A DNA stretch of 58,253 nucleotides from positions 1 to 58,253 of IMG/VR virus record IMGVR_UViG_3300037510_000086. One strand, written 5' to 3'. This document shows positions 11,297 through 48,358 of the stretch, piece by piece. Under the pieces are notes generated by a model. The model searched no databases. It saw only the letters and a program-made list of their open reading frames with translations, and was not told the DNA's origin. Numbering within the stretch: the first letter of the stretch is position 1; every line of letters begins with the position of its first letter. Source of the DNA: a virus (taxonomy: Duplodnaviria; Caudoviricetes). Both the position numbers and the translations under genes were made by a program.

Positions 11297-11309
11297 GGAG
11301 CAACACAGC

Positions 11310-12197
11310 ATGACCACTCTCAAGTGGGACCAGCCCGGAGAGCGCACCTATGAGACGGGTGTGTCCAAGGGTGTCCTCTACCTCCCGACCAACGGCGTCT
11401 ACGACCAGGGTGTTGCGTGGAACGGTCTGACGACCGTCACCGAGTCACCTTCCGGCGCCGAGTCCAACAAGCAGTACGCCGACAACATGGTCTACCTGAA
11501 CCTGCTCTCGGTCGAGCAGTTCGGTGGAACCATCGAGTCCTTCACCTACCCCGACGAGTGGGCGGAGTGCGACGGTTCCGCCGAGCCGACCCCCGGCGTC
11601 CTGGTCGGCCAGCAGCCGCGACGGACCTTCGGCCTGTCCTACCAGACCAAGATCGGCAACGACCTCGACCCTGAGGCCGGGTACAAGATCCACCTGGTGT
11701 ATGGCGCACTGGCGGCCCCTTCCGAGAAGGCCTACGCAACCGTCAACGACTCGCCCGAGGCGATGGGTCTCAGCTGGGACGTCTCGACCACCCCGGTCGA
11801 CGTTCCCGGAACGAACCCGGCTACCGGCAAGCCGTTCAAGCCGACCGCCAGCATGACCATCGACTCCACCACGGTCGACGCGACGGCTCTCTCCACGCTG
11901 GAGCAGGCCCTCTACGGCACTGCGGGTACCGACCCTCGCCTGCCGCTTCCGGGTGAAGTCATCGCGATGTTCTCCGGCACGGTCACGCAGGTCACTCCGA
12001 CCCCGCCGACCTACGACAACTCGACGCACACGCTCACCATCCCGGCGACCACCGGCGTCAACTACTACATCAACGACGTTCTCCAGACCGCCGGTCCGCA
12101 GACGATCACTCAGGACACCGTTGTCACTGCCGCTCCGGCGCAGGGCTACAAGTTCCCGGCCGTCACGGACGACGACTGGTACTTCGACTACGTGTAG
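11310..12197 (+). CDS. Major tail (tube) protein
   Basis: GAGGAG RBS; LKWDQPGERTYETGVSKGVLY, YADN, GYKIHLVY; C-terminal Ig-like extension. Confidence 0.85.
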   Translation: MTTLKWDQPGERTYETGVSKGVLYLPTNGVYDQGVAWNGLTTVTESPSGAESNKQYADNMVYLNLLSVEQFGGTIESFTYPDEWAECDGSAEPTPGVLVGQQPRRTFGLSYQTKIGNDLDPEAGYKIHLVYGALAAPSEKAYATVNDSPEAMGLSWDVSTTPVDVPGTNPATGKPFKPTASMTIDSTTVDATALSTLEQALYGTAGTDPRLPLPGEVIAMFSGTVTQVTPTPPTYDNSTHTLTIPATTGVNYYINDVLQTAGPQTITQDTVVTAAPAQGYKFPAVTDDDWYFDYV

Positions 12198-12785: not shown

Positions 12786-13574
12786 ATGCCAAGGCTCGAC
12801 TGGGACGCTCCGGGAGCTCGTTACTACGAAGCGGGTGTTGACCGTGGCGTCCTGTATGTTGCGGGCCAGCCGGGCGTCGTATGGAATGGTCTGACCTCCG
12901 TCGATGAGACTCCTTCGGGCGGTGAACCGCGCGCCTTCTATCTTGACGGCGTCAAGTACTTGAACTACTCAGCGCCCGAGGAGTTCGAGGCTACCATTAC
13001 TGCTTTCACATATCCTCTCGAATTCGAGGTGTGCGACGGCAGTGTTCAGCCTCGTCAGGGTCTGTTCCTCACTCATCAGAGGAGGAAGTCTTTTGGGCTG
13101 TCCTATCGGACCTTGATCGGCAGCGACCAGTCCGATGTCGAGGGTTACAAGCTCCATATCGTCTACGGGGCTCGTGTTTCTCCGACGGATCGCAACCGTC
13201 AGACGTTGAAGGAACAAAACGACCCAGACGACTTCAGCTGGAAGATCACGTGCAAGCCACCGGCCATGGACGGGTACAAGCGTACTGCGCATGTCGTGCT
13301 TGACTCCAGAACCACGGACCCGACGGTTCTTTCGGCGATTGAGGATATTCTCTACGGAACCGATGCGGACTCGGCGAGAATCCCCACCCTCACTGAATTG
13401 ATCGGCGCATACGACACGATCAACTCGATGACTGTCACCGACAACGGCGACGGAACGTTCACCGTCGAGGCTCCGTATGACGTTATTCGGATGCTCGACA
13501 GCGAAACCTTCGAGATCACGTCGAACAACGCCGTATTCATCGACGACACAACATACACCCTCAGCTCCGACTAG
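12786..13574 (+). CDS. Second tail-tube paralog
   Basis: RLDWDAPGARYYEAGVDRGVLY, WNGLTSV, GYKLHIVY align with 11310..12197. Confidence 0.8.
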   Translation: MPRLDWDAPGARYYEAGVDRGVLYVAGQPGVVWNGLTSVDETPSGGEPRAFYLDGVKYLNYSAPEEFEATITAFTYPLEFEVCDGSVQPRQGLFLTHQRRKSFGLSYRTLIGSDQSDVEGYKLHIVYGARVSPTDRNRQTLKEQNDPDDFSWKITCKPPAMDGYKRTAHVVLDSRTTDPTVLSAIEDILYGTDADSARIPTLTELIGAYDTINSMTVTDNGDGTFTVEAPYDVIRMLDSETFEITSNNAVFIDDTTYTLSSD

Positions 13575-26831: not shown

Positions 26832-27074
26832 ATGTTGAACCGATTCGCGATTCAGACCCGGCTCGTCAAGAACCCCAAGAAGAAGACTGTCTCCGAGAAT
26901 GACACCATGGCAGAAGCCGTTGGCGAATCCTCCGCACGACTCGTGAACGAGTTGGCGAAGGACTTCGTCAAGTACGCTGCCGGTGCCATCATCGGAGTGA
27001 TCGTCATCTCCACGGCCACTGACACGCTGAGGCAGATCGCCGTCAAGAAGACCAAGAGCGCCGACAACGAGTAA
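26832..27074 (+). CDS. Small cassette membrane protein
   Basis: YAAGAIIGVIVISTA segment; followed by hairpin cccc-gcaa-ggggttagggtt at 27082-27111. Confidence 0.8.
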   Translation: MLNRFAIQTRLVKNPKKKTVSENDTMAEAVGESSARLVNELAKDFVKYAAGAIIGVIVISTATDTLRQIAVKKTKSADNE

Positions 27075-27136
27075 CCACCTCAACCCCCGACCCCGCAAGG
27101 GGTTAGGGTTTAGCGTTCAAAATGGGAAGTGATTCT

Positions 27137-27253
27137 GTGAAAGCGCTACCGTACTATCTCGTGATCCTGGGGTTTCTCTCTTTGGTAGTCGGTGAATTCG
27201 CCTGGGCACTTTCCTTCTTCATAATAGCTTTCGCAACACGAGAGGGTTCGTAA
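27137..27253 (+). CDS. 38-aa hydrophobic peptide (below ORF-track cutoff)
   Basis: GTG start; KALPYYLVILGFLSLVVGEFAWALSFFIIAF; stop overlaps next ATG. Confidence 0.55.
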   Translation: MKALPYYLVILGFLSLVVGEFAWALSFFIIAFATREGS

Positions 27254-27384
27254 TGGAAAGAAGCAAGACTTGGTTCGTGGCGATGTGTTTCATCGTCGTC
27301 GGAATCGTTCTGCTTGTGAACGGCTGGTTCTTCACCGGGGCGATGCTCCTCCTTCTGGGGTGCGTGTTGAAGCTGGCTGACTGA
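27253..27384 (+). CDS. 43-aa two-helix membrane peptide
   Basis: MERSKTWFVAMCFIVVGIVLLVNGWFFTGAMLLLLG; GAGGG RBS. Confidence 0.6.
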   Translation: MERSKTWFVAMCFIVVGIVLLVNGWFFTGAMLLLLGCVLKLAD

Positions 27385-27389
27385 GAAGG

Positions 27390-27420
27390 TCGCACGAAAA
27401 ACACGCGTTAATATGAGACC
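27390..27420 (+). promoter_or_regulatory. 31-bp element, copy 6
   Basis: tcgcacgaaaaacacgcgttaatatgagacc. Confidence 0.8.
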
Positions 27421-27440
27421 TCTATCGATTGGACATCACC

Positions 27441-27638
27441 ATGCTCAAGAAGAACTCCACCCCCGAAAACACCATCCTCGACGATGACGCTCGCCGTGCT
27501 CACGCACAGAAGCAGCTCTTCCGCTCGGTCGCAACCGCCGTTGCGATCAAGGTAGGCGTGACTGTCGCTGTTGCCATCGCAGCGAAGGCCATCGTCAGGA
27601 AGCTGGAAGCGGGAACGGAAGACTCCTCCGAGAACTGA
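27441..27638 (+). CDS. Small cassette membrane protein
   Basis: VATAVAIKVGVTVAVAIAAKAIV; ATG 27441. Confidence 0.8.
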   Translation: MLKKNSTPENTILDDDARRAHAQKQLFRSVATAVAIKVGVTVAVAIAAKAIVRKLEAGTEDSSEN

Positions 27639-27656
27639 CATCCACCGCAACATCTC

Positions 27657-27688
27657 AGACCCTACCCCTACATGGGGTTAGGGTTTTT
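27657..27688 (+). terminator. CCCC-TACAT-GGGG family terminator
   Basis: agaccctacccctacatggggttagggttttt. Confidence 0.8.
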
Positions 27689-27706
27689 CTTTTGGCTGGA
27701 GGTGTG

Positions 27707-27925
27707 ATGTTCGGCCGACCCAAGGAATACCACTTCGTTCTTACTATCGAGGCTTCTACGCAGGACGGAGTGACGCACCAATTTCAGCGGAACAATGTGA
27801 TGAAGTGGTCGTCGACTGAATATTGTGCCTTGATGCATCTCACAACCGAGTTGGCATCTAGACATAATCTTCGGCCCGAATCCATAATCATCTTGTTCTG
27901 GTCGTTCAAGAAAAACAAACCCTGA
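27707..27925 (+). CDS. Hypothetical protein
   Basis: GGAGG RBS before ATG 27707. Confidence 0.6.
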   Translation: MFGRPKEYHFVLTIEASTQDGVTHQFQRNNVMKWSSTEYCALMHLTTELASRHNLRPESIIILFWSFKKNKP

Positions 27926-27967
27926 AATTTCCCGCGGGGAATTTTCCAGAAAACTTTTGGAGGAATC

Positions 27968-28096
27968 ATGCGCAGCGACGTCAAGACCCTTCTGTTCTTC
28001 ATCTTCCTCATCGTTGGATCGTATTTGATCCTCACGGGCTCGTTCATCATCGGGCTGATCTTGATCATGCTGGCGGTGGTCATACCGGCGGTCTAA
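27968..28096 (+). CDS. 42-aa two-helix membrane peptide (resembles 27253..27384)
   Basis: GGAGG RBS; MRSDVKTLLFFIFLIVGSYLILTGSFIIGLILIMLAVVIPAV. Confidence 0.65.
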   Translation: MRSDVKTLLFFIFLIVGSYLILTGSFIIGLILIMLAVVIPAV

Positions 28097-28110
28097 TCCA
28101 GCCACAGGGG

Positions 28111-28141
28111 TCGCACGAAAAACATGTCTTAGTATGAGACC
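28111..28141 (+). promoter_or_regulatory. 31-bp element, copy 7
   Basis: tcgcacgaaaaacatgtcttagtatgagacc. Confidence 0.8.
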
Positions 28142-28164
28142 CCTACTATGGATTGGAACCCACC

Positions 28165-28428
28165 ATGTCCGAGAAGACCGCCTCTACCCCCGAGACCACC
28201 AAGCCCTCCAAGCTCTCCGTCAAACTGAACAGCCTCAAGCCGTCCAACATCGACAACGAGAAGAAGGAAGCCGCCGTCCGACGCATCAAGTTCGCAACCG
28301 CGTACACCCTTGCGTTCGTCGCCGGAGCCCTGACCACCGTTGCCGTGATGAACGCCAAGAACCTTCACGACGCCGAGACCGAGGAGACCGCTGAGGTCGA
28401 GGAGACCGAGGAGACCACCGAAGACTGA
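28165..28428 (+). CDS. Small cassette membrane protein with acidic tail
   Basis: FATAYTLAFVAGALTTVAV; E/T-rich C-terminus. Confidence 0.8.
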   Translation: MSEKTASTPETTKPSKLSVKLNSLKPSNIDNEKKEAAVRRIKFATAYTLAFVAGALTTVAVMNAKNLHDAETEETAEVEETEETTED

Positions 28429-28449
28429 TATTCCACCAAACCGGTATCA

Positions 28450-28479
28450 GGCCCTGACCCCTACATGGGGTTAGGGTTT
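28450..28479 (+). terminator. CCCC-TACAT-GGGG family terminator
   Basis: ggccctgacccctacatggggttagggttt. Confidence 0.75.
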
Positions 28480-28509
28480 CGCTTTTCGGATCGAGAGATG
28501 GAGTTTTCC

Positions 28510-29140
28510 ATGTCCAAGGAAATCGAGAAGAGCAACAAGAAGCGCACGGTTCTGGTCACGCTGGGGACCCTCGCGGCCCTCGTCGGGCTGATCAAATTCA
28601 TCATCCGGATCGCCAACGGCGAAGACACTCGCTGGGAGAACTGATCGTGGCCGAGGGCGACGAAAAGATCATCACCATCCGCTTCAAGAAGCCGGAATTC
28701 TGGGACAAGATCAAGGAGCAATGGGACGAGAACCCCATGCTCGTGATCGCGGTGGGTACAGCTGCCCTCACCGCCACGGGCAAGCTCATCGATGCTGTCG
28801 CCAGCATTCCGAGCAAGCGCGCGTACGCCAAGCGCATGAACAAGCGGGGGGACGAGAAGTGAGTGCGAAGATCATCACCCAGGAGGGGACTCCGGTGGAT
28901 GGTTGTCCGGAAGAGAACGAAGAGCCCACGTTGGCGGAAGATCTCCGAGCCCTCGCCGAGGACGTCAACGAGGGTCTGGTGGGCTTCCGCAAGTTCCGCA
29001 ACAGCGCGATCCTCAAGATCGGTATCGTCGCCGTGGCCATCAAGGTGGTCGGAGTGGTCGGTCAGATCATCATCGAGAACCAGCGTTTGAAGGCGGCTCG
29101 CCAGGAACGCCAGGAAGAGCGCGACCAGAACGAAGCGTAA
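28510..29140 (+). CDS. Three small single-TM proteins (28510..28644, 28647..28862, 28859..29140)
   Basis: Closely spaced or overlapping ORFs, each with one hydrophobic segment. Confidence 0.65.
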
Positions 29141-29152
29141 TCATCGCCCAGC

Positions 29153-29186
29153 GGGGCCCATATTCACGATGGATGTGGGCCCCTTT
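29153..29186 (+). terminator. Hairpin / terminator upstream of the TerD gene
   Basis: ggggcccatattc-acgat-ggatgtgggcccc followed by ttt. Confidence 0.65.
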
Positions 29187-29218
29187 CGCTGCAACACTTC
29201 ACAGACAAGGAATTCAAA

Positions 29219-29890
29219 ATGGGTATCACCTTCCGCAAGGGTGTCGACTCTCCGCTCGACGGCGTGAACCGACTGATGTTCGGCGCGGGCTGGGACCGCA
29301 AGACCAAGAAGCAGTCCGGCTGGGCCCGCAAGCTGGCCGTGAAGACCGGCGGGAAGATCAACGTTGGTGGTGGCGAGAAGGACATCGACCTGGACCTCGC
29401 GCTGATCCTGTACCGCGACGGCGAGCCGAAGCGCATCGTCATCGGCCACAACATGGACCCCGTCAACGGCGCGGCAGTGCACTCCGGTGACAACCAGACC
29501 GGCGAGGGCGACGGCGACGACGAGACGATCACGTTGGACCTGCTCCGCCTGCCCGCCTGGGCGACCGAGTGGGCCGTCGCGGTCTTCGCCTACAAGATGG
29601 GTACCAACTTCGACCAGGCCCAGAACGTCTCGCTCAACGTCTACGACGCCAGCGGCTCCGGGGAGCCCGTGCTTTTCGACGAGCTGATGCCTACCCTCGG
29701 CTCCGGCGCGACGGCTTGCGTCATCGCCAGCGGCAAGCGCAACCGCAACGTGTCGGGAGACCCGATCGACGGCTGGACCACCACGCTGGTCGACAAGTCC
29801 GGCAAGCTCGCCATGCAGGGCGACGACAACGCGATACTGGCGTTCGCTCGTAGTAACGCGGGAATCCGCCGTCCCGGCTCCGTCCTCTGA
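29219..29890 (+). CDS. TerD-family stress protein
   Basis: GAGWD, DIDLDLAL, VHSGDNQTGEGDGDDETITLDL, NFDQ TerD signature. Confidence 0.88.
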   Translation: MGITFRKGVDSPLDGVNRLMFGAGWDRKTKKQSGWARKLAVKTGGKINVGGGEKDIDLDLALILYRDGEPKRIVIGHNMDPVNGAAVHSGDNQTGEGDGDDETITLDLLRLPAWATEWAVAVFAYKMGTNFDQAQNVSLNVYDASGSGEPVLFDELMPTLGSGATACVIASGKRNRNVSGDPIDGWTTTLVDKSGKLAMQGDDNAILAFARSNAGIRRPGSVL

Positions 29891-30003
29891 CGCCATGGTT
29901 CCCCGTCCAGACAACGGGTGTACCTGCGACGGGGGACCGTACACCCACGGTCCAAAGGGCAGAGACGAGGTTCTCGCCCAGCTCAAAATGAGAAGAGAAA
30001 AAG

Positions 30004-30198
30004 ATGAGCCTCGCCCTCCAGTTCGCCAGACCGGTCGAACCGGAACCCGACATATCTGAGCTGATGGTCTACGACCCCGAGCGTCAGATGAACGTCTTCA
30101 AGGACGGCAGCGGCTTGGTCATCGACGACCCGGACACGCTGATCAAGTTTGGCACGACCACCTCGACTGCCGGGTCCAAGACCCACTTCGATGACTGA
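30004..30198 (+). CDS. ATP-grasp-modified RiPP (graspetide) precursor-like peptide
   Basis: Leader ALQFARP...YDPERQMNV...DG and Thr/Ser/Asp core GTTTSTAGSKTHFDD match actinobacterial ATP-grasp target peptides (recalled family). Confidence 0.75.
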   Translation: MSLALQFARPVEPEPDISELMVYDPERQMNVFKDGSGLVIDDPDTLIKFGTTTSTAGSKTHFDD

Positions 30199-30207
30199 GG
30201 AGCCATC

Positions 30208-30294
30208 ATGAACTTCTTCGGACACATGCTCTCCGGCCTCGTCGGAGGAATGGTGGCCTTACTGATCGAGCACTACGTCAATCACAAGCGGTAG
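30208..30294 (+). CDS. 28-aa hydrophobic peptide
   Basis: GAGGAG RBS; MNFFGHMLSGLVGGMVALLIEHYVNHKR. Confidence 0.55.
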   Translation: MNFFGHMLSGLVGGMVALLIEHYVNHKR

Positions 30295-30295
30295 A

Positions 30296-30326
30296 TCGCA
30301 CCAAAAACACGCACTTAGATGAGACC
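30296..30326 (+). promoter_or_regulatory. 31-bp element, copy 8 (followed by a hairpin, no ORF)
   Basis: tcgcaccaaaaacacgcacttagatgagacc. Confidence 0.8.
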
Positions 30327-30367
30327 CATATTCCGTGAACACCACACGGGGTATGGGTTTACCTTTT
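30324..30367 (+). ncRNA. Candidate ~45-nt hairpin RNA or immediate terminator
   Basis: acccatattccgtg-aacacca-cacggggtatgggt (14 bp, 2 G-U pairs) followed by ttacctttt. Confidence 0.5.
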
Positions 30368-30387
30368 AACCAACAAGGAGAAGCACA

Positions 30388-30975
30388 ATGAGCAACAGCA
30401 CGCGCCCCAGTCTCGCCGGACCCGTCATCGCCCTGTGCTTCGCCCTTGTGGCGGTCGCCTTGGCCTCCATCAGCGGATGCGGGACTTCTCTCGCGGTCGA
30501 CAGCAAGCCCAGGACCGTCTCACTCATTGGCGAGTGGCGGCAGATCAACCCCAACTCGGGCGGATGGATGACGGCGTCCATATCCGGTGAGTCCGTCCAG
30601 GTGAACCTGAGAGGGCGTGGCTCCAGTTCCGTGTACTGGATGGGTACGTTCGACACCCACCCGCGGAAGTCCAACAAGTTCAAGGTCGTCTCGATCGGCG
30701 ACCCCGACGCCGCGAAGTCGATGATCACCGCCGACGAGTCCAAGACGAAGACGTTCACATACGACCACGGCGTTCTCTCGTTCAAGTTCTCGGCGCTGGG
30801 GACCTCGGCCACCATCCACATGACCAAGGCGAAGTCGACGCATATTCCGACCGCCACCCCCACGACTCACCGGCCCTCGTACAAGACTCCCCAGACCAAC
30901 AAGAAGCCGACCACCAAGGCCAAGGCGAGGACCGGGGTCAAGGCGCCCGCCAAGATCTCGACCCGCAAGAAGTAG
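30388..30975 (+). CDS. Probable lipoprotein
   Basis: AAGGAG RBS; signal peptide ending LASISG-C; K/T/P-rich tail. Confidence 0.7.
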   Translation: MSNSTRPSLAGPVIALCFALVAVALASISGCGTSLAVDSKPRTVSLIGEWRQINPNSGGWMTASISGESVQVNLRGRGSSSVYWMGTFDTHPRKSNKFKVVSIGDPDAAKSMITADESKTKTFTYDHGVLSFKFSALGTSATIHMTKAKSTHIPTATPTTHRPSYKTPQTNKKPTTKAKARTGVKAPAKISTRKK

Positions 30976-30982
30976 GTACACC

Positions 30983-31777
30983 ATGAAGTTCAAGCTGGGA
31001 ATACTGGCCAAGCAGGCGAAGAAGGCCATCGCTGACAACTCCCCCGCGCTTCTGACTGCGCTCGGTGTGACCGGTACGCTTACGGTCGCATATCTGACGG
31101 GCAAGGCTTCGTTCAAGGCGGCGGAGATCCTCGCCAAGGAAGCCAAGCAGCGCCGCAAGGACGGCGACCCGGAGATGGACAACTGGGACAAGGCCGATCT
31201 GGTCTGGCGTGAGTTCATCCCCGCCGCCGGTATCGCCGCCCTGACCGTCTCTGCCATCATCGGCGCAAACCACATCAGCACGAAGCGCGTCGCTGCCTTC
31301 GCCTCGGCATATTCCATGGCCGAGAAGGGGTTTTCCCAGTACAAGGAAAAGGTGCTGGAGAAGGTCGGCCCGAAGAAGGAAGCGGAGATCAAGGACGAGG
31401 TCGCCAAGCAGCAGATCAGCGACCACCAGTACTCCAAGTCACCGATCATCATCACCGGACACGGAGACCACCTCTGCTTCGACGCATATTCGGGGCGGTA
31501 CTTCCAGAGCGACATCGAGCGCGTTCGCTCGGCGGTCAACGATATCCGGGACCAGATCCACAGTCAGGATTCCGCGACCCTGTCCGACTACTGGGGGCTT
31601 ATCGGTCTGGAGTCCACCCAGGTGTCCGACGACATCGGGTGGACCACGGATCAGAAGCTCGACGTTCACTACACGTCGGACCTCACCAAGGAAGGTGTGC
31701 CGTGCTTGATCGTCACCTTCCTCTCAACGCCGAAGCCGCTCTGCGGTCCCATCGGCTCGACCTACAGCGCGTATTGA
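30983..31777 (+). CDS. Membrane protein (DUF6353-like), paralog of 36487..37431
   Basis: NSPALLTALGVTG...KA N-terminus; ATLSDYWGLIG...IGW C-terminal domain. Confidence 0.7.
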   Translation: MKFKLGILAKQAKKAIADNSPALLTALGVTGTLTVAYLTGKASFKAAEILAKEAKQRRKDGDPEMDNWDKADLVWREFIPAAGIAALTVSAIIGANHISTKRVAAFASAYSMAEKGFSQYKEKVLEKVGPKKEAEIKDEVAKQQISDHQYSKSPIIITGHGDHLCFDAYSGRYFQSDIERVRSAVNDIRDQIHSQDSATLSDYWGLIGLESTQVSDDIGWTTDQKLDVHYTSDLTKEGVPCLIVTFLSTPKPLCGPIGSTYSAY

Positions 31778-31979
31778 AGAGCTGCGTTCCACTACGGGAC
31801 GCTTGATCTTGAGGACGCATTCGGGAGCTGAGTTCATGCAGGACGCCTGTACTGACTCGTCGGGCAAGCCCGATTGCCTATGGCGAGTCTCATGCAACAT
31901 CACAAGGGCGTCCTGCCCGAAAATGGACGCCCTTCTTCAAAAGCTCGATACCGATATTTCACGAGAGGCAGAACACATC

Positions 31980-32360
31980 ATGTCGAACCCCAAGAACACC
32001 GCCGCCACCCCGAAGACCGTCAAGGAGACCGTCGAAGCGAAGTCCGGCGAGGAAGCCGTCATCCCCGCGCAGACCACCGAGGTCAAGCCCGGCTTCGCCG
32101 ACGGCATCAAGGTCGAGGACCCCAAGGACGCCCAGTCCGAGGAGAAGACCACCCTGGTGAAGCGCGCCAAGGCCGCCGCCGAGAAGCTCAAGTCCAACAA
32201 GAAGGCCATGTTCTTCCTCGCGGGCGCTGCGGTCGTCATCGGCCTGACCATCAAGAACAACCGCAAGGCCGTCAAGGTCGAGGTCGTGGACCCGGAGGAC
32301 ACCTCTGTCGAGGGTGTCGACGACGTCACCGGCCCGGACGAGACCGACGACTCTCTCTGA
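31980..32360 (+). CDS. Single-TM protein
   Basis: GAGAGG upstream of ATG 31980; AMFFLAGAAVVIGLTI. Confidence 0.7.
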   Translation: MSNPKNTAATPKTVKETVEAKSGEEAVIPAQTTEVKPGFADGIKVEDPKDAQSEEKTTLVKRAKAAAEKLKSNKKAMFFLAGAAVVIGLTIKNNRKAVKVEVVDPEDTSVEGVDDVTGPDETDDSL

Positions 32361-32400
32361 GTCACACACCAACCTGAAGCGCGCGAGAAAGAAGTAAGAA

Positions 32401-32934
32401 GTGGCGATATCCGAGACCATCACGTACCAGGACATCGACGGGAAGACGGTCACCAAGGAGTGGTGGTTCTCCCTCGACAAGGCCGAGCTCGCCGAGATGA
32501 AGCTCCGTCATGAGGGTCCTGGTAAGGGCACTCTGGAGGAGTACCTCGACCGGATCATCAAGGAGGACGACAACAACAAGATTCTGGACAACTTCCAGAT
32601 GATCCTCCAGAAGTCCGTCGCAGTCCGGGTGGACAACTACCTCAAGAAGACCCCCGAGACCGTCATGGAGTTCACAGGCGGCGGGGCCTACGAGGCCATG
32701 TTCATGAAGATGCTGCGCGAAGCCGAGTACGCGGCCAAGCTCATCAACGGCATCCTCCCGAAGGACATGGTTGAGGCGGTCGCCAAGAAGGACGCCGAGA
32801 AGTCCCAGCACACCGACGAGGAGCTTCTCGCCATGAGCGATGAGGAGTTCTTCTCAGTGGCCGGTGGCCAGAACCCCATGCGTTGGGACCCGCGTTTCCT
32901 GACGCTGGCGGCTCGGCGCAAGACCGCGGCATGA
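32401..32934 (+). CDS. Conserved hypothetical phage protein
   Basis: ETITYQDIDG...WFSLDKAEL; phage-like codon usage. Confidence 0.75.
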   Translation: MAISETITYQDIDGKTVTKEWWFSLDKAELAEMKLRHEGPGKGTLEEYLDRIIKEDDNNKILDNFQMILQKSVAVRVDNYLKKTPETVMEFTGGGAYEAMFMKMLREAEYAAKLINGILPKDMVEAVAKKDAEKSQHTDEELLAMSDEEFFSVAGGQNPMRWDPRFLTLAARRKTAA

Positions 32935-33053
32935 TCGACCCGGAGAAGATGTTCGACGAGATGAAGAAGTTCGGCGTTCTGATGATCATCGGACCCGCCC
33001 TCATTCTCGTCGGATATCTTCTTACCTGGGGAGTGAAACTCCTCATCAAGTGA
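32931..33053 (+). CDS. 40-aa membrane peptide
   Basis: ATGA overlap; FGVLMIIGPALILVGYLLTWGV. Confidence 0.6.
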   Translation: MIDPEKMFDEMKKFGVLMIIGPALILVGYLLTWGVKLLIK

Positions 33054-35265: not shown

Positions 35266-36475
35266 ATGGACGACATATTCAGAAAGAGGGAGCTGGTAAA
35301 ACAGGCATACCCCCACTCGAAGACCTGGCCGCAAAAGGTCAAGAACATGCCCGATAGCCAGATAGTAGCCGTGTTCCTCAGACTGAGGAGACAGGGAAAA
35401 ATTTGAAGAGGTACCCGCGGCGATACAGACCCTGGCGGTTGATGGACAAGTTCCATCCCGGCTGGGACAACTACGACCGCAAGAAGAACGCGATATTCGT
35501 GGGGCTGGTCTTGGGCGAACTCAATGACCTGCTCCGCGAACGCGGTTACGTCTTGCTCGACGAGGCCCTAGGTCGGCTGGGATTTGCGATCCCGGAAGAC
35601 TCCGAAGGAGAGTACGAGGGATGGGTCTATGAGCCCGACCCGGAGTACGGAGATGGCTATATCTCCTTCGGCATTTGGGACGACGGTTTCGCCGCGGGAT
35701 TGGACTGGATGAACGGGAAAGTCGACGTCATCAAGCTCCGTTTCAACGTGGACCGTGTCCCGCTTCCTATATCCATTCAGAAGAAGAAAGAGAGGGACCG
35801 CAAGTGACCAAGTTCGTTGTCGGCATCGCGATCGGATATTTCTTTGGCCGCCCAGCCAAGGAAGGGTCGAAGTTCGACGAGGCGATCACCAACGGCGCCC
35901 GCCGAGCAGGCCACAAGATCGGCGAGTTCATCCAGAAGAAGGTGCTCGGGTGAGAAAAAAGAAGCAGCTTCTTCTCGGAGTCGGCGTGGGTCTACTCGTG
36001 CGACCCGTCATTGCGCGAGTGGCCCGTCCGCTGACCAGCAAAGCCCGCCAGGCCGTCAGGGTGAAGCTCTACGAGCTCGCCTGCCAGTACATGCAGGACT
36101 TCGACGCCGACAGGCCTCCTCCCCACTAAGGACTGCGACATGAGCGAGAAGTACATTCCCGCTGGTGCAGTAACGGCGACGTACGACAGCAACAATCCTC
36201 GCTGGATCAAGGGTTACGGAGGAAACCGTCTCTTCCTCCAGGCTCAGCAACACCTCGCCAATATGATCCTCTTCGACCGGGGTTACATCACCCTGAACGA
36301 GGTCTTCGCCATGCTGGACCTCCCGCAGACAGAAGAGGGCGCTCTGGCGGGATGGGTATCCGACGGGATTAGGCAAATCGACTTCGGTGAGGAAGCCGAC
36401 GCACCGCCGCCGGGGCCCAAGATCGAACTTCGTTTCAACATCAACAGCAACAACGTCTTCCAGGACAAGAAGTAA
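35266..36475 (+). CDS. Cluster of small ORFs (35266..35406, 35403..35807, 35804..35953, 35950..36129, 36140..36475)
   Basis: Mostly 4-bp overlaps; 35403 and 36140 share a domain with 36487. Confidence 0.65.
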
Positions 36476-36486
36476 GGACATTCCCA

Positions 36487-37431
36487 ATGGGATTCAAGAA
36501 CTTGGCCAACAAGGCCGGTCTGAAGGTCAGCCGTAGGGTTCTGACCGTCAAGTCGCATTCCCCCGTCATCCTCATGGCCACCGGAGCCGTCGGCTTCGCC
36601 GCCACCGTGGTTCTGGCGAGCAAGGCAACGCTCAAGATGAGCGAGATCCTCGATGAGGCTGAGGCACTCGACAAGCAGGTCGATGAGGCCGGTGAGAAGG
36701 CCGAGGCCGTCGGTCTCAGCTACACCGAAGACGACAAGAAGAAGGACCGATTCACTGTCCGAGTCAAGACCGCGGGCAAGATCGCCAAGAACTATGCTCC
36801 GACCGCCATCGTCGGTGTCGCATCTCTCGCCTGCTTCATCGGCTCCCACCGCATCCTGACCAAGCGCAACGCCGGTCTGTCCGTCGCACTGGCGGGCGTC
36901 ACCAAGGCCTTCCAGGAGTACCGGGGCCGCGTCGTCGATGAGCTCGGCAAGGAGAAGGACCGCGAGTTCCGGTTCGGCGTCGTCGAGCGCACGATCGGCG
37001 TGGAGACGGACGAGGGTGTCGTCGAGAAGACGATCCGTGGCGTGGACCAGAACGCCATGCTCGCCAATGGCGACTCCATGTACGCCAAGATCTACTCGCG
37101 CGGCACCAGCGATCTGTGGCAGCCGGTGATGGTCCAGAACGAGCTCATCCTGCGCGGTCGTCAGAACTACCTGAACGACCTGCTCCTCACCCGCGGTCAC
37201 GTGTTCCTGAACGAGGCGTACGAGGCTCTCGGTTTCGACCACACCGAGGAGGGTGCTGTCGTCGGTTGGATCTTGGGTCATGGCGACCAGGAGATCGACT
37301 TCGACTGCTTCAACGAAAAGGGCGAGTTCCGCGAGGACGTGTTCGTCAACGGAGACGTCGACTCGATCCTGCTGGACTTCAATGTCCACGGCCCGATCTT
37401 CAAGCTGCTCCCGAAGAACAAGAAGGACTAG
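36487..37431 (+). CDS. Membrane protein (DUF6353-like)
   Basis: HSPVILMATGAVG...KAT; LNDLLLTRGHVFLNEAYEALG...GW; ILLDFNV. Confidence 0.75.
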   Translation: MGFKNLANKAGLKVSRRVLTVKSHSPVILMATGAVGFAATVVLASKATLKMSEILDEAEALDKQVDEAGEKAEAVGLSYTEDDKKKDRFTVRVKTAGKIAKNYAPTAIVGVASLACFIGSHRILTKRNAGLSVALAGVTKAFQEYRGRVVDELGKEKDREFRFGVVERTIGVETDEGVVEKTIRGVDQNAMLANGDSMYAKIYSRGTSDLWQPVMVQNELILRGRQNYLNDLLLTRGHVFLNEAYEALGFDHTEEGAVVGWILGHGDQEIDFDCFNEKGEFREDVFVNGDVDSILLDFNVHGPIFKLLPKNKKD

Positions 37432-38623: not shown

Positions 38624-41600
38624 TTGGTGCTGGATTTCTTCCAGATCATAGTAAAGGAGACCAGGGAAGGCGTCGAGGTCCGTCCGGACTTCGTGGTGGG
38701 GAGGTCGAAAGACCTGATGGTCCAAGGCGGCGACTTCTATGCCGTCTGGGACGAGTCGACTGGACTCTGGTCGAGAGACAAGTACCGAGTCGCCGAACTC
38801 GTAGACGCCGAGATTCGTGAGTTCTGTGAGAAGAAGGAATCTGAGGGCATGGTCGTCAAGCCCAAGTACCTCAGATACTTCGCGAATGGCGGGTGGAAGC
38901 AGTTCAACACGTTCCTCAAGAACGTGAGCGACAACTCCCACCCGCTGGACACGGTTCTCACGTTCGCCAACACCAAGGTTGAGAAGAACAGTTACGCGAG
39001 CCGTCGGCTTCCGTATGATCTCTCCCCCGGAGATATCAGTGCTTACGACCAGCTGATCAGCGTCCTCTACGATCCCGAGGAACGGCTGAAGTTCGAGTGG
39101 GCCATCGGGTCCATCATCGAGGGTAAGGCGAAGGATATCCAGAAGTTCCTGGTGTTCTTCGGTGCCCCCGGAACCGGCAAATCCACGGTCATCGATATTG
39201 CCGTCAAGATCCTCGGCGGTAAGGTGTCTGATGGCGGCTACGTAACCACCTTCGAGGCCGCGAACCTCATCGGCGGAAACAATGCATTCTCCATGGAGGC
39301 ATTCCGGGAGAACCCGCTTCTTGCGATCCAGCACGACGCGGACCTCTCCCGGATCGAGACCAACACCAAGTTGAACTCGATCGTGTCTCACGAGGAGATG
39401 CGGATCAACGAGAAGTACAAGGCGACGTACGACTCGAAGATCAACGCTCAGCTCTGGCTGGGCACGAACAAGCCGGTACGGATCACTGACGGATATTCGG
39501 GTCTCATCCGTCGCCTCATCGACGTCCACCCCACGGGTGCGACGCACGACTGGGACACGTACCATATTCTCGCGGAGCGTGTCAACTTCGAGCTTGGGGC
39601 TATCGCACATCACTGCTCCAAGGTGTACAAGAAGCTCGGTAAGAGCTATTACTCGAAGTATGTTCCCGAGAAGATGATCCAGAAGACGAACGTCTTCTAC
39701 AACTTCGTTGAGTACTACCACGACGAGTTCGCCGCCGAGGATGGAATCACCCTCAAGCGGGCGTTTGACATGTGGAAGCAGTATTGCAAGGAAGCTGAGC
39801 TCGAATTCAAGATGGCGATGCACAAGTTCCGCGAGGAACTGCGCGTCTACTTCGAGACGTTCGAGGAGCGGATCACTGTCAACGGCGTGACTTACCGGAG
39901 TTACTTCTCGGGGTTCAAGGCCGACAAGTTCAAGGAGCCTGTCGAGCCGGACAATCCCAAGGAATTCAAGATGGTTCTGGAGCACGAGGTATCGCTCCTG
40001 GATGAGATGTACGCGGGACTCCCGGCCCAGTATGCCGGTGCTCGGAACAACCCCAAGCTGTACTGGGACAAGTCAGAGCGCACTCATCCGGAAACCGGGG
40101 AGCCCTTCATCCCGAAAGACAATCAGGTCTGTAGCACCGTCCTCGGAGATCTTGATACGAGCAAGCTGCATTTCCTGAAGGTTCCCCAGAACCACATCGT
40201 TGTCGATTTCGACTTGACGGATGAGAACGGAAAGAAGTCGCCAGAGTTGAATCTCCGGGCGGCGGCTTCCTTTTACCCCACGTATGCCGAGTTCAGCAAA
40301 AGCGGCGGGGGTGTACACATGCACTACATCTGGGACGGAGACGTAAGCGAGCTTGCAAACGTCATCCAACCCGGTATCGAAGTCAAGGTGTACAACGGCA
40401 ACGCTTCGCTTCGGCGAAAGCTGACCAAGTGCAACGACGTGGCGGTGGCCACGATTTCTAGTGGACTACCGATCAAGGAGAAGAAGGACGTGCTTCAGGG
40501 CAGTGCTATTAGGAGTGAGAAGGGCCTCAGGGCCTTCATCGTCAAGTGTCTCCGAAAGGAGCACCACGGCCACACCAAGCCTGAGATCGATTTCATCGAG
40601 CATGCGCTCAGGCAGGCCTACAACTCGGGGATGATCTATGACGTCTCCGACATGAAGAAGCTCGTCATCGAGTTCGCCAACGGCAGCAAGAACTCTTCTG
40701 CGTCCTGCTTCAGGGCCATTACGCGGATGAAGTTCAAGTCCGAGAAGACGTCCGAAGAGGCGAACCTTCCGGAGCCGAAGCCGTCCGACGAGCGGATTTT
40801 CTTCTTCGACTGCGAGGTCTACCCGAACCTCTTCGTCGTCTGCTTCAAGCCGCATGACGGAGACGAGAAGTCTGTCGTCTCGATGGTCAACCCGACTCCC
40901 ATGGAGATCGAGAAGCTCATCACCAACTTCAAGTTGGTCGGCTTCAACAACCGCGACTACGACAACCACATCCTGTGGGCGCGGTACATGGGTTACACCA
41001 ACGAGCAGCTCTACGACCTCTCGCAGCGGATCATCGTCAAGAAAGACCGCAACGCGAAGTTCGCCGAGGCCTACCACCTGTCTTACGCAGACGTCTACGA
41101 CTTCAGCGTCAAGAAGCAGGGGCTGAAGGCCTGGGAGATCGAGCTCGGCGGTAAGCACCAGGAGATGGATCTTCCCTGGGACCAGCCCGTCCAGGAGAAG
41201 GACATCAAGCGGGTTGTCCAGTACTGCGGAAACGACGTCATCGAACTGGAGCGGGTGTTCAACCACCTGCATGGTGACTTCGTGGCCCGTCAGATCCTGG
41301 CGGATCTCAGCGGCATGTCAGTGAACACCACCACCCGCAATCACGCCGGTCGGATCATTTTCGGACAGGAGCGGAATCCTCAGAAGGACTTCGTCTACAC
41401 CGATCTGTCCGAGCAGTTCCCCGGATACAAGTTCGACAAGTTCGCTCCGGAGGGGCAGAAGAGCACCTACCGGGACGAGTACGTCGGTGAGGGAGGTTAT
41501 GTCTACGCGGAGCCTGGCATCTACGAGAACGTGGTCTGCCTGGACGTCGCGTCGATGCATCCGACCTCGATCGAGATGCTGCGGGCCTTCGGCCCATACA

Positions 41601-42730
41601 CGGTGGTCTACTCGGCCATCAAGGAGGCACGTCTCTCGATCAAGGGCGCTCGGTCGGCACTCGCCAAGTTCCTCAAGACTGGCGACGAGGGATATCTCTC
41701 GAAGGCGGACGATCTTCTGCTGGAAGCAAAGCAGATGTTCCAGGGAAGGCTCAAGCCGCATATCGCGGAGATCGAACTCATCGAGAATCGAGAGGAGCGC
41801 GTCAAGGCTCTTAAGAATCTCGAAGACGCCCTGAAGCTGGTCATCAACTCCGTCTACGGCTACACGTCGGCGAAGTTCGAGAACCTCTTCCGGGACCCGC
41901 GCAACATCGACAACATCGTCGCCAAGCGCGGTGCTCTGTTCATGATCGATCTCAAGCACTATGTGCAGAGCCTCGGCTTCCAGGTCGTCCACATCAAGAC
42001 GGACTCGATCAAGATCCCCAACGCCACGTCGGAGATCATCGAGGCTGTCGTGGAGTTCGGTCAGAAGTACGGCTACGAGTTCGAAGTCGAGGGCGAGTAC
42101 AAGAAGTTCTGTCTTGTCAATGACGCCGTTTACGTGGCTCAGGATGAGGATGGGGCTTGGCACGCCACGGGAGCTCAGTTCCAGCACCCGTATGTGTTCA
42201 AGCGTCTGTTCTCCGGCGAGGGCATCGACTTCCGGGATCTGTGTGAGAAGAAGCAGGTCAAGGAAGGTGTCATGTACCTAGATGACATCGATCTGGAGCT
42301 GTACGGGATGACGCCGGAGAACGTGGCTGACGCCCTGGAGATCGAGAACAAGTCCGAGGGTCAGCTGGCACTCGACTACAACGGCAATCGCTACCACGTC
42401 GGTCGTACGGGTCTGTTCGTCCCGGTGGCTGACGAGCTCGGCGGCAGGCTCATCCGGATCAAGGACGACAAGGAGTTCGCGATCCAGGGAACTAAGGGTT
42501 ACCGCTGGGTCGAGGCGGAGATGCTCAGGACCCTCAAGCCCGAGGCGTTGGAGCGGATGCTCTACGAGCGGGTCGAGGACGCCGTCGAGGGCACCGGCTC
42601 GATCGCCGATGTCGTAAATCTGGAGTACTTCGAGGGTCTGGTCGAAAAGGCCGTCAAGACCATCGAGAGCTTCGGAAGCTTCGAAGAGCTGACCGGGATT
42701 CCTGCGAAGGAACTGGAGAATTCTGCGTGA
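38624..42730 (+). CDS. Fused SF3 (D5-like) helicase - AEP primase - family B DNA polymerase
   Basis: GAPGTGKST Walker A; VVDFD and SKSGGGVHMHY primase motifs; exonuclease FFDCEVY, FNNRDYD, YCGND; polymerase LDVASMHP, KLVINSVYG, IKTDS. Confidence 0.88.
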   Translation: MVLDFFQIIVKETREGVEVRPDFVVGRSKDLMVQGGDFYAVWDESTGLWSRDKYRVAELVDAEIREFCEKKESEGMVVKPKYLRYFANGGWKQFNTFLKNVSDNSHPLDTVLTFANTKVEKNSYASRRLPYDLSPGDISAYDQLISVLYDPEERLKFEWAIGSIIEGKAKDIQKFLVFFGAPGTGKSTVIDIAVKILGGKVSDGGYVTTFEAANLIGGNNAFSMEAFRENPLLAIQHDADLSRIETNTKLNSIVSHEEMRINEKYKATYDSKINAQLWLGTNKPVRITDGYSGLIRRLIDVHPTGATHDWDTYHILAERVNFELGAIAHHCSKVYKKLGKSYYSKYVPEKMIQKTNVFYNFVEYYHDEFAAEDGITLKRAFDMWKQYCKEAELEFKMAMHKFREELRVYFETFEERITVNGVTYRSYFSGFKADKFKEPVEPDNPKEFKMVLEHEVSLLDEMYAGLPAQYAGARNNPKLYWDKSERTHPETGEPFIPKDNQVCSTVLGDLDTSKLHFLKVPQNHIVVDFDLTDENGKKSPELNLRAAASFYPTYAEFSKSGGGVHMHYIWDGDVSELANVIQPGIEVKVYNGNASLRRKLTKCNDVAVATISSGLPIKEKKDVLQGSAIRSEKGLRAFIVKCLRKEHHGHTKPEIDFIEHALRQAYNSGMIYDVSDMKKLVIEFANGSKNSSASCFRAITRMKFKSEKTSEEANLPEPKPSDERIFFFDCEVYPNLFVVCFKPHDGDEKSVVSMVNPTPMEIEKLITNFKLVGFNNRDYDNHILWARYMGYTNEQLYDLSQRIIVKKDRNAKFAEAYHLSYADVYDFSVKKQGLKAWEIELGGKHQEMDLPWDQPVQEKDIKRVVQYCGNDVIELERVFNHLHGDFVARQILADLSGMSVNTTTRNHAGRIIFGQERNPQKDFVYTDLSEQFPGYKFDKFAPEGQKSTYRDEYVGEGGYVYAEPGIYENVVCLDVASMHPTSIEMLRAFGPYTVVYSAIKEARLSIKGARSALAKFLKTGDEGYLSKADDLLLEAKQMFQGRLKPHIAEIELIENREERVKALKNLEDALKLVINSVYGYTSAKFENLFRDPRNIDNIVAKRGALFMIDLKHYVQSLGFQVVHIKTDSIKIPNATSEIIEAVVEFGQKYGYEFEVEGEYKKFCLVNDAVYVAQDEDGAWHATGAQFQHPYVFKRLFSGEGIDFRDLCEKKQVKEGVMYLDDIDLELYGMTPENVADALEIENKSEGQLALDYNGNRYHVGRTGLFVPVADELGGRLIRIKDDKEFAIQGTKGYRWVEAEMLRTLKPEALERMLYERVEDAVEGTGSIADVVNLEYFEGLVEKAVKTIESFGSFEELTGIPAKELENSA

Positions 42731-45918: not shown

Positions 45919-47225
45919 ATGAACTTGCTCGGATTCGTTCTTCTGGTCACCGCGGGGATCATCTTCCTGGCCGTCGGCATCGACGTATCCAATCAGATCT
46001 GGCGGGAGAAGCAGGCTGAGCGGGATTCTCAGGAGGACGCCATAGCGGTTCTGTACGCGGCGATAGCCAAGCGATTCGCAAGCCGCATGCAGGCCCCCGA
46101 CAACGTCGTCCCGTTGGAGGTGGTGGCCCGTCCGCAGAAGCCTTCTTCCGTTGGCGGTCGACACCGTCTGACGGCTGCCTGATATGCCGCCGGTTCAGCC
46201 CGCTGAGACACTCGCCGCTTTGGGTATTGCCGCAGGTGTCGTCGTATTCCTGATCGGCCTGATTCTCCTCGGTGTGGTAGCCCTCATCGACGGAGCAGTA
46301 AGACGGGGGAAGAAGCGACTCATCCCTCATAACTCACAAGAAGAAGTAAGGGGACGATAATCCCGATGGACCTCGCGACCGTCTACTGGAGCATCTGCAT
46401 AGCGCTCTGGGTTGCCACTGGAGTGATGGCAGCCGCTCTGTCGGCGTTCGTTACAACTTCATACGAGTCGATACACAGAATCATCAGCGGGTGTCGTAAG
46501 GCCCGCGACTAAGGGGGTGCCGTGAACCACGCGGTCGTCGATGACAGCAACGCAGGCCCCATTTTCGAGGGGCTACCGGGAGAAGTCCGTAGATGGCTGA
46601 ACGGAAACGAATGGGCCTTGATGTTCGACGTCCGCGTGGGTCCGGACAAGTATCAACCAGCTGTGGTGTACTTGGGCAGGCGCGAGCCTCTTGAGAGCGA
46701 GATCTGCCCATCCTGCAAGGAAGTAGTAAGTCAGAGCAAGAGACACATCCACAACCAAAAATGTGTGGGGGAGAACTGATGGCCGTCATCACGTCTGAGT
46801 GGGTACGCAAGAGTTTTCGGGTCAAGGCCGTCCAGGTCACCCGAGAGAACTACCTGGAGATAGCGGACTGGACCGGGGGCGAGGTCGTCTGGAAGACCCG
46901 CGGAGCCTCCTACGTCAAGATCGACTGCGGATCGAAGAAGGAAAGCCGTACTGCTTTTGCTGGTGACTGGGTGACGTGCCTGATCACCTACAACGACGGC
47001 GAGGCTCCCGAGGAGCCCAACTTCCGGGTCTACAACAACAGCACGTTTCTCCAGGCCTTCAAGCAGATCATGAGCGAGGCCGACAAGTTCGCCAAGATCC
47101 ACAACAAGCTCATGATGCTCATCAGGGCTCAGGACTCGGCGACGTACCACGGCGAATCCAGCGCGGGCATGATCGAGCTCGTCGACAAGACCGCCCGTGA
47201 ACTCTGCGAGATGGTGACGGCATGA
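45919..47225 (+). CDS. Hypothetical genes (45919..46182 membrane, 46522..46779, 46779..47225) plus smaller membrane peptides
   Basis: ORF track entries with plausible starts. Confidence 0.6.
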
Positions 47226-47296
47226 ATATATTTCGGAGAGACCGCGTCCACGTCCTATCTCCAGAATTCGTCGAAAAGTATCTTCGAGGAGGAGAG

Positions 47297-48358
47297 ATGA
47301 GCGGGCCCATCTGCCGAATCGACCGGATGCCGTACGCGTCTATGCAGAAGGTCGAATCGTACGTCAGGGACGTTTGGAACCGAGCCAAGGGGACTCAGCA
47401 CGACGAGACCGATCAGGTCGAGAATTTCATCCAGCTTACGGCTGGTGAAATCGACGACTTCTTCGGCGGCATCGTCGACGCTTCTTACGCAGCGATCGTC
47501 CTACACCTTCGCGAGCTCGCCATGATCTCCAGTCACGGCAAAGCGCTCGATCCGGACGAGCAAATCACCTACACCACCGGCAAGATCATCGAACTCGCCC
47601 AGGGGGACAACAAGATGGAAAGCAAGAGCCAGCTCGAAGCCATGACGTTCCGTCGGGTCAAGGAGGCGATCGAGAAGACGATCGACAAGGACTCCACCCA
47701 CGACGAGATCGTCACCATCGCCGAAGAGTACGCCGCAAAGATCGTCAACGACGTGTTCGGCGGCAAGGTCCCGGCGACGGAAGGCGAGTTCGTTCCGAGG
47801 TACTACGAGATGGACCCGGAGACGGAGGAGTATCTTCCGAGCGGGGCAATGCTCCGGGATGGCATGGTGGTCCTCAACGCGGACCCCGAGCGTCGAGCGG
47901 AAATCCGCAACAAGATGACGGAACGAGAGATCTACAGGGCTCGCACGGCCAACCGGTGGGCGAAGATCGAGAGCTACCGTACTCCGACTTCCCCCTTCGA
48001 CGCACTCGTGCCGTCTTCCACTAAGAAGTTCGTCGCCACCTACGAGGATGGCACGAAGCGGAGGTTCGACGCCGAGACCGACCAGGCCTGGTTGGTAAAG
48101 AAGGATTCCATTCCGGAAGAGCCGAAGCTCTCCGAGAAGACCGACAAGGTCTCCTTCACCATCAAGAACGCCATGTACGAGGTGTTCAACGAAGAGGGCA
48201 ACCGGGTCTTCGAGGGGGTCCCCGGCTCGATCCTGGAGTGGGCTGCTGAGTTGGCCGACGACGGCGTGAACAAGTACGGGGGATTCATCGTGGCTCGTTC
48301 GGGACTGGTGGCCCCTGTCCGGTCGCTGAAGGCATTCGTCGAGGAGAACACCGAATGA
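47297..48358 (+). CDS. Hypothetical multidomain protein
   Basis: GAGGAGGAG RBS before ATG 47297 (ORF is open from 47222). Confidence 0.7.
   Translation: MSGPICRIDRMPYASMQKVESYVRDVWNRAKGTQHDETDQVENFIQLTAGEIDDFFGGIVDASYAAIVLHLRELAMISSHGKALDPDEQITYTTGKIIELAQGDNKMESKSQLEAMTFRRVKEAIEKTIDKDSTHDEIVTIAEEYAAKIVNDVFGGKVPATEGEFVPRYYEMDPETEEYLPSGAMLRDGMVVLNADPERRAEIRNKMTEREIYRARTANRWAKIESYRTPTSPFDALVPSSTKKFVATYEDGTKRRFDAETDQAWLVKKDSIPEEPKLSEKTDKVSFTIKNAMYEVFNEEGNRVFEGVPGSILEWAAELADDGVNKYGGFIVARSGLVAPVRSLKAFVEENTE

Follow-up and report, generated by a model that had tools for sequence, protein, structure and literature searches.

RiPP precursors are usually studied together with their enzymes, within one cluster. 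The closest described system to the one considered here is prunipeptin of Streptomyces, which was reportedly described by Unno and Kodani in 2021 and is said to be bicyclic, by the title of that work; its ring chemistry comprises one ester and one isopeptide bond. The Strep_pep precursor family is one that we take to be the prunipeptin family, its ligase being PruB. An excerpt of a preprint gives the cluster family of prunipeptin (MIBiG BGC0002725) 3,589 members, 99.5% of them in Streptomyces (10.1101/2025.02.24.639861), and every characterized graspetide inhibits proteases, according to part of PMC8939145. In their titles and the opening lines of their abstracts, the listed papers on graspetides and phages describe no phage-borne graspetide precursor, and those on phage-encoded RiPP precursors hold nothing on a module lacking its ligase; nothing relevant contained the core string THFDD, and no literature was found naming PruB together with graspetide. 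Here we consider a phage precursor of this kind that is kept under selection without a ligase, beside a gene for a mini-protein. Going by those titles, abstract openings and cited excerpts, this combination appears to be new; the precursor family and its chemistry were already known.

The phage and its precursor gene

The DNA analysed (the window) is a whole IMG/VR virus record of 58,253 bp, with a completeness of 100% by CheckV. It encodes a terminase, a portal, a protease-capsid fusion, a tape measure, tail proteins, a lysis cassette and a replication module, with nearly all genes on the plus strand (Pfam, PHROGs). Near the precursor its closest sequenced relative is ClubPenguin, a Streptomyces phage of the genus Bingvirus, which aligns at 78% identity over 74% of positions 27000-33000. 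The window is a complete Bingvirus-like Streptomyces phage, a siphophage of the virulent type. Several genes elsewhere in it deserve mention in their own right. The major tail proteins at 11250-12194 and 12786-13571 are paralogues (both phrog_2645) with a 180-aa gene between them; a 1,368-aa protein (38624-42730) combines DUF5906, of primase/helicase type, with a weak match to family-B DNA polymerases; and a 922-aa protein with a C-terminal helix-turn-helix (55044-57809) matches phrog_4291 from end to end (1,281 bits), a family whose label, 'RNA-dependent RNA polymerase', looks odd for a dsDNA siphophage.

The features of the precursor locus are as follows.

29219..29890, plus strand: TerD-domain protein (PF02342, E 1.8e-15; phrog_5698)
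29895..30059, plus strand: CxC mini-protein from the ORF list, unannotated, 54 aa, with an invariant CTCxGGPYxHGPxG motif
29917..29945, plus strand: inverted repeat with 7-bp arms and a 15-nt spacer, inside the mini-protein ORF and unique in the window
30004..30198, plus strand: graspetide precursor of the Strep_pep / GRASP_targ family (TIGR04186, PF14404), 64 aa, ATG start
residues 1-50 of the precursor, plus strand: leader, within which lies the stretch YDPERQMNV
residues 52-64 of the precursor (nt 30157-30195), plus strand: core TTSTAGSKTHFDD, 13 residues, invariant among homologues
30208..30294, plus strand: 28-aa hydrophobic small ORF, 9 nt past the precursor stop, with a GGAG motif 6 nt upstream
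30323..30368, plus strand: terminator-like hairpin with a 16-bp stem, then a U-rich run (RNA fold)

A preliminary description of this DNA had picked out a 64-aa peptide with a YDPxxQxNV leader and a C-terminal core, and the ORF at 30004..30198 on the plus strand is just that; its C-terminus reads GTTTSTAGSKTHFDD. The same description had assigned the peptide to TIGR04186. This assignment holds, the GRASP_targ profile scoring 34.8 bits (E 1.3e-8) against a curated cut-off of 25 (and finding the precursor at 33.2 bits in a six-frame search of the window), and it agrees with Pfam PF14404 Strep_pep (64 bits, E 1.4e-17; curated cut-off 25). Besides scores above the cut-off, the peptide has the Thr/Ser/Lys donors, the terminal Asp-Asp acceptors and the leader motifs of the family. 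It belongs to no PHROGs family, and its base composition (GC2 0.39, GC3 0.86) is that of the surrounding real phage genes. The label 'TgmA-like' finds no support; our leads, and the match of a bacterial neighbour ligase to PDB 9bou, point to prunipeptin PruA/PruB as the closest characterized system. The family is probably that of prunipeptin, an identification based on the 9bou match and on family size and taxonomy rather than on the sequence of prunipeptin itself. Albusimiditide and other graspimiditides were set aside because they belong to another family, which has a methyltransferase and whose core is 42-46 aa long.

The two-gene cassette of bacteria

The tail motif of the precursor occurs in the genomes of at least 563 species, and the best 80 of these are all Streptomyces or close kin. 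A comparison with Streptomyces, which had been recommended at the outset, thus turns up relatives of the phage precursor, at identities of at most 56% (best 80 of at least 563 genomes). Among sampled Streptomyces genomes, PF14404 is present in 162 of 301, about 46% of the sampled species being without the family, and both counts agree with the near-confinement of the two-gene cassette to this genus.

The family had been said normally to sit beside an ATP-grasp ligase, and so it does: in 78 of the 80 loci (again the best 80 of at least 563) the ligase starts no more than about 30 nt past the precursor stop, and the two are adjacent in 139 of 155 loci overall. Two example neighbour ligases score 334 bits and 394 bits against TIGR04187, and the neighbour ligase of one bacterial locus matches chain A of PDB 9bou over its full length (E 2.4e-172). 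The ligase is the sole conserved neighbour of the bacterial precursor (the next best is found at 42 of the 80 loci, and no exporter or protease is conserved across them), from which it seems likely that one enzyme is sufficient. One genome (G001, which holds locus L022) has three full-length TIGR04187 ligases, a split fourth and two PF14404 precursors, so a single host can offer several related maturases. A decayed cassette is also to be seen, in a Streptomyces genome in which fragments of a Tn3-family transposase stand in place of the ligase (L012:6500-7588).

Phage copies of the precursor and the selection acting on them

Among 50,697 phage records, the precursor is found only as gene 43 of ClubPenguin (87.5% identity) and gene 47 of Scarif (53%); four further matches, at E = 2, were dismissed as noise. 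IMG/VR and the JGI metagenomes supply Bingvirus-like fragments of the same synteny (L003, L004, L090, L091, L093 and L094). Some phages retain the full precursor-ligase pathway. On two IMG/VR contigs (L005 and L006, 77 kb and 199 kb) an intact ligase comes straight after a precursor with the same core; some 7.5 kb upstream there are genes for a head protease and capsid, and the PHROG families found downstream include a dCTP deaminase. Neither has the mini-protein. A tblastn search of the 50,697 phage records with the ligase of L005 found this type in no isolated Streptomyces phage, and (at E <= 1e-5) no homologue in ClubPenguin or Scarif.

The core does not vary among the homologues (25 of 25) and agrees with the consensus of 80 bacterial copies; the phage core, its Thr/Ser/Lys and Asp residues included, is the same as that on Streptomyces chromosomes. 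Over the last 14 codons, all 10 pairs among five phage copies show 5-9 synonymous differences and 0-1 non-synonymous ones. For the whole gene, dN/dS between the window and ClubPenguin is 0.125 at a dS of 0.63, and values across phage pairs run from 0.08 to 0.30, with synonymous sites near saturation. The phage core is under purifying selection, and the gene is not decaying. Within the leader, L5, Q6, A8, D24, Q28 and V31 are invariant or nearly so, and A-L-x-[FY]-A-[RK]-P, Y-D and Q-x-N-V are common to the phage clades and the bacterial consensus, from which phage leaders otherwise show systematic substitutions. In a quick tree, built on 62 columns and of little resolution, the five phage copies and 22 database copies (Logan, JGI, ENA) fall opposite the 80 bacterial ones with an SH-aLRT support of 92; a second quick tree likewise had few columns and weak support. 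With identities of at most 56% and a tree group of their own, the phage precursors seem to represent an old lineage and not recent captures.

The CxC mini-protein

The ORF of the mini-protein begins 4 nt past the TerD stop and, in a different reading frame, extends over the opening 56 nt of the precursor gene. It is kept in L001, L003, L004, L090, L091, L093, L094, L011 and L092; in ClubPenguin it is unannotated. Over 24 codons, window and ClubPenguin differ at 9.5 synonymous and 4.5 non-synonymous sites (Sd and Nd; pN/pS 0.15), and their nucleotide differences, 4/1/9 by codon position, lie mainly at third positions, which gives the ORF a coding signature. The 30 homologues (49-104 aa) are all unnamed and belong to no Pfam family, and all 31 of the 31 sequences share the motif CTCxGGPYxHGPxG without change. 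Its Cys and His residues may bind metal or a partner. An AlphaFold2 model, of low confidence (pLDDT 65, pTM 0.35), consists of a loop and one helix.

An exhaustive HMMER profile search of 1.84 billion representatives gave 18 matches to the mini-protein, 17 of them 46-95 aa long; a 2,265-aa protein (E 2.8e-4) was taken as noise. In 301 Streptomyces genomes, with part of the first-look candidates scored, the HMM found seven weak matches (E 5e-4 to 8e-3), none of which adjoins a precursor, while the positive control, genome G302, was found at E 3.7e-22. It is likely that the mini-protein is rare among Streptomyces genomes, and it has the appearance of a new, rare and stand-alone family.

Association of the mini-protein with the lack of a ligase

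The mini-protein was tallied against the ligase at 155 loci, a ligase being counted as adjacent when it begins no more than 120 nt past the precursor, and as missing where at least 900 nt are available downstream.

ligase no more than 120 nt past the precursor: 139 loci, none with the mini-protein
no ligase, with at least 900 nt downstream: 12 loci, nine with the mini-protein
too short to judge: 3 loci, one with the mini-protein (L090)
no complete precursor end: 1 locus (L157), mini-protein not scored

The nine are the window, L001, L003, L004, L091, L093, L094, L011 and L092; three ligase-less loci lack it, namely Scarif, L012 (disrupted by Tn3) and L095. When presence of the mini-protein is set against absence of the ligase, Fisher's exact test gives p = 2.5e-12, a value to be read in the light of the relatedness of the loci, which are not independent; perhaps about three independent lineages lie behind the association (two Bingvirus-type clades and a high-GC type). 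A search of IMG/VR that started from the mini-protein led only to the contigs of L003 and L004.

The two high-GC copies (L011 and L092) look like prophages or other integrated elements, because they adjoin tyrosine integrases and, in the case of L011, there is also a weak portal match nearby. Genome G302, to which L011 belongs, combines a ligase-less CxC-precursor module, beside an integrase, with one canonical precursor-ligase pair, the ligase of which is the only TIGR04187 match in that genome. A third kind of ligase-less precursor, without the mini-protein, is seen on a metagenome contig of GC 0.70 (L095:688-2494), where a 133-aa Cys-rich ORF stands before it and three small ORFs on the plus strand, none with a Pfam family, come after it.

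The CxC mini-protein and the ligase-less precursor make up a conserved two-gene module of phages and prophages. The term 'orphan', which the preliminary description applied to the precursor, calls for some qualification, as the gene is one half of such a module.

Absence of a ligase from the phage

The window contains no ATP-grasp ligase, whether beside the precursor or elsewhere, that can be recognized by any of the approaches used, just as had been supposed. The TIGR04187 maturase model found no match at E <= 10 in all six frames, and a Streptomyces ligase used as tblastn query had no match at E <= 1e-3; no ATP-grasp and no methyltransferase family was revealed by Pfam searches of all 143 ORFs that reach 110 aa on either strand, or by PHROGs searches of 35 plus-strand ORFs. 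Two proteins have no assignable family in either collection.

47222-48355: 378 aa, no assignable family (Pfam, PHROGs)
50652-51401: 250 aa, no assignable family (Pfam, PHROGs)

Profile-profile comparison of a ligase alignment with these two (hhalign) gave probabilities of 0.2% and 0.6%, and the Atlas model of the 378-aa protein, which is of poor quality, resembles nothing.

Organization of the locus and its surroundings

The TerD protein is 78-81% identical in L001, L003, L004, L087, L093 and L094, where it lies directly upstream of the module, and its gene provides the synteny anchor of the module in Bingvirus-like phages. (A link between TerD and ATP-grasp proteins was set aside, since it concerns a different ATP-grasp family.) The inverted repeat at 29917..29945 occurs once, against none expected in shuffles, and its sequence is conserved in ClubPenguin; it may simply reflect conserved coding sequence. 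The 28-aa ORF has no Pfam family and is absent from related loci, tblastn finding it in the window alone. The hairpin at 30323..30368 has a folding energy of -26.3 kcal/mol (z -4.3), equalled by none of 200 shuffles. From the tight packing of the TerD gene, the mini-protein, the precursor and the small ORF, followed by this hairpin and U-run, it appears that they form one unit ending at about 30368. A scan of 28500-31200 revealed no sigma-70-type promoter, and PADLOC gave no match for 12 proteins representing the module, its neighbours and the host pair.

The first of four DUF6353 (phrog_2152) paralogues or fragments within 7 kb comes directly after the module and its lipoprotein gene, at 30983-31777, the others being at 35403-35807, 36140-36475 and 36487-37431. 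In L004 the variable region between the lysis genes and the module holds a gene for an 87-aa protein (L004:2891-3151) with an Acb2/Tad1 hairpin domain (PF24729, E 1.4e-9), the mark of a phage sponge family for defence signalling nucleotides; no counterpart was detected in the window. The window also encodes a GNAT acetyltransferase (5855-6643) and a 2'-5' RNA ligase-like protein (3157-4098), both with a short DUF7211 motif. A phage GNAT was the site of mutations in phages escaping an anti-phage lanthipeptide of Streptomyces, according to an excerpt of PMC12360287.

How might the phage use its precursor?

What would a phage gain from a precursor that comes without its ligase? A little short of an even chance is what we would give to the reading in which a host ligase acts in trans to mature the phage precursor and the phage profits from the product. 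The phage would express the two-gene module, comprising the CxC mini-protein and a ligase-less precursor of prunipeptin type, and a PruB-type ATP-grasp ligase of the Streptomyces host (TIGR04187) would recognize this precursor and cyclize it in trans. Such recognition is most likely because the leader motifs and a complete ring-forming core are kept. Infected cells would then produce a peptide with a host-identical core in larger amounts, or under phage control, and the cyclized product would be what benefits the phage, conceivably as a protease inhibitor by analogy with characterized graspetides. The tight coupling of the mini-protein to the precursor suggests that it might be a stoichiometric helper, for example in stabilizing the precursor or in docking it on the host enzyme.

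Maturation in trans is favoured by the strong amino-acid constraint on a phage core identical to the Streptomyces chromosomal one, by the retention in phage copies of the conserved leader positions, and by the sufficiency of a single enzyme in bacteria together with the frequency of the family in the host genus. It is also favoured by the coexistence in G302 of a ligase-less module with a canonical pair whose ligase is the sole TIGR04187 match, by the phages (L005 and L006) that keep both core and intact ligase, and by the age of the phage lineage, whose members do not look like recent captures. The preliminary description had left a choice between borrowing of the host ligase and mimicry, and the sequence evidence leans towards real use of the core over mere mimicry. 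Against maturation in trans, however, it has to be said that the phage leaders, which are systematically changed, share no more than 56% identity with those of bacteria, while graspetide ligases are reported to be highly specific for cognate peptide groups (part of PMC8939145); that nearly half of the sampled Streptomyces species lack the family; that conservation of the leader, and perhaps of the core, would be required of a decoy as well; that the mini-protein is left without an explanation, and Scarif keeps the precursor without it; and that the two window proteins without a family leave room for a non-homologous enzyme. A complex predicted for a Streptomyces ligase with the phage precursor and mini-protein scored 0.02, where the mark is 0.32, and is given no weight here.

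We regard it as possible, if doubtful, that the precursor is a decoy or competitor, and this is the main rival reading. With the aid of the mini-protein it would tie up either the host ligase or whatever target the host peptide has, and in that way put an end to a function of the host graspetide that harms the phage, an intracellular anti-phage role being one example. A bacterial cassette without a conserved exporter or protease is compatible with an intracellular role; moreover, the leaders of the phage precursors carry systematic alterations, the mini-protein is confined to loci that encode no ligase, and the module occupies the variable region in which the related L004 carries its Acb2/Tad1-type domain. 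There are also intracellular lanthipeptides of Streptomyces with anti-phage activity (excerpts of PMC12360287 and 10.1101/2024.06.26.600839). On the other hand, a core more conserved than the leader better fits a product with its own target than a blocker of an enzyme, phages with their own ligase (L005 and L006) argue that phages want the product, the host ligase and precursor match none of 5,027 PADLOC models, and we know of no anti-phage role for this peptide family.

It is less likely again that no ATP-grasp step is involved and that the peptide, still linear, works together with the mini-protein, say as a complex binding the cellular target of the host peptide, as a signal or as a regulator. 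The two genes do overlap or abut and are co-inherited in 10 loci, the invariant Cys/His-containing motif could bind metal or a partner, and about half of potential hosts have no ligase, but invariant ring-forming residues and leader motifs of the ligase type are hard to explain without the enzyme, and Scarif has the precursor but no mini-protein. As a rule ATP-grasp enzymes are readily detected, and a modifying enzyme of the phage's own that sequence methods fail to recognize seems to us very improbable: several window proteins without a family, including those at 47222-48355 and 50652-51401, offer candidates, but their profile-profile comparison with the ligase and the Atlas model of the 378-aa protein lend them nothing, and the search with the ligase of L005, which speaks for homologues only, was empty for ClubPenguin and Scarif. 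Hardly credible, finally, is a functionless remnant of a captured host cassette, for which the missing ligase might speak; it is contradicted by the selection evident in dN/dS across phage pairs, and by the precursor's conservation in at least eight distinct sequences from phages or prophages, where it keeps one syntenic position and is accompanied by a conserved partner gene.

A more speculative proposal, for which we would claim only a minor share of the probability, is that the CxC mini-protein and the ligase-less precursor form a 'hijack module', in which the virus supplies a substrate and a tiny adaptor and so commandeers or jams a RiPP maturase of its host. If this were true, it would imply an intracellular role in infection for the invariant prunipeptin-type peptide that is so widespread in Streptomyces (in defence, protease control or development, for instance); a virus would be seen for the first time to exploit, across genomes, a RiPP enzyme of its host, and the mini-protein would count as a new kind of RiPP accessory factor. 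Maturation by a host enzyme, if it occurs, would be a compact example of the reprogramming of host secondary metabolism by a phage, and would give a first handle on the role of a very common and highly conserved Streptomyces RiPP. Here the virus keeps the substrate alone, under strong selection, and the matching enzyme is found in half of the species of the host genus. The mini-protein is open to direct test because ClubPenguin and Scarif are isolated phages with named laboratory hosts, Streptomyces mirabilis NRRL B-2400 for the former and a strain of S. albidoflavus for the latter.

Comparison with known systems

Among phage peptides, arbitrium AimP is similar in being a small precursor that needs host machinery to mature (excerpt of PMC12360287), but AimP is only cleaved and has its own phage receptor, whereas the step expected here is cyclization by an ATP-grasp enzyme, and no receptor for the peptide is evident in the phage. 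The prochlorosins and ProcM likewise involve precursors without a neighbouring enzyme, modified in trans (excerpt of PMC11118758), with the difference that precursor and enzyme would here sit in two genomes, those of a virus and its host.

With prunipeptin PruA/PruB the phage locus shares the precursor family (PF14404/TIGR04186), the bacterial neighbour ligase of which matches 9bou; it differs in having no ligase, in its siphophage setting, in a leader at most 56% identical and in the mini-protein gene that comes before the precursor. The cassettes of L005 and L006 have in common with it the invariant core and the phage setting. They differ from it in possessing their own ligase and a leader of bacterial type and in having no CxC mini-protein.
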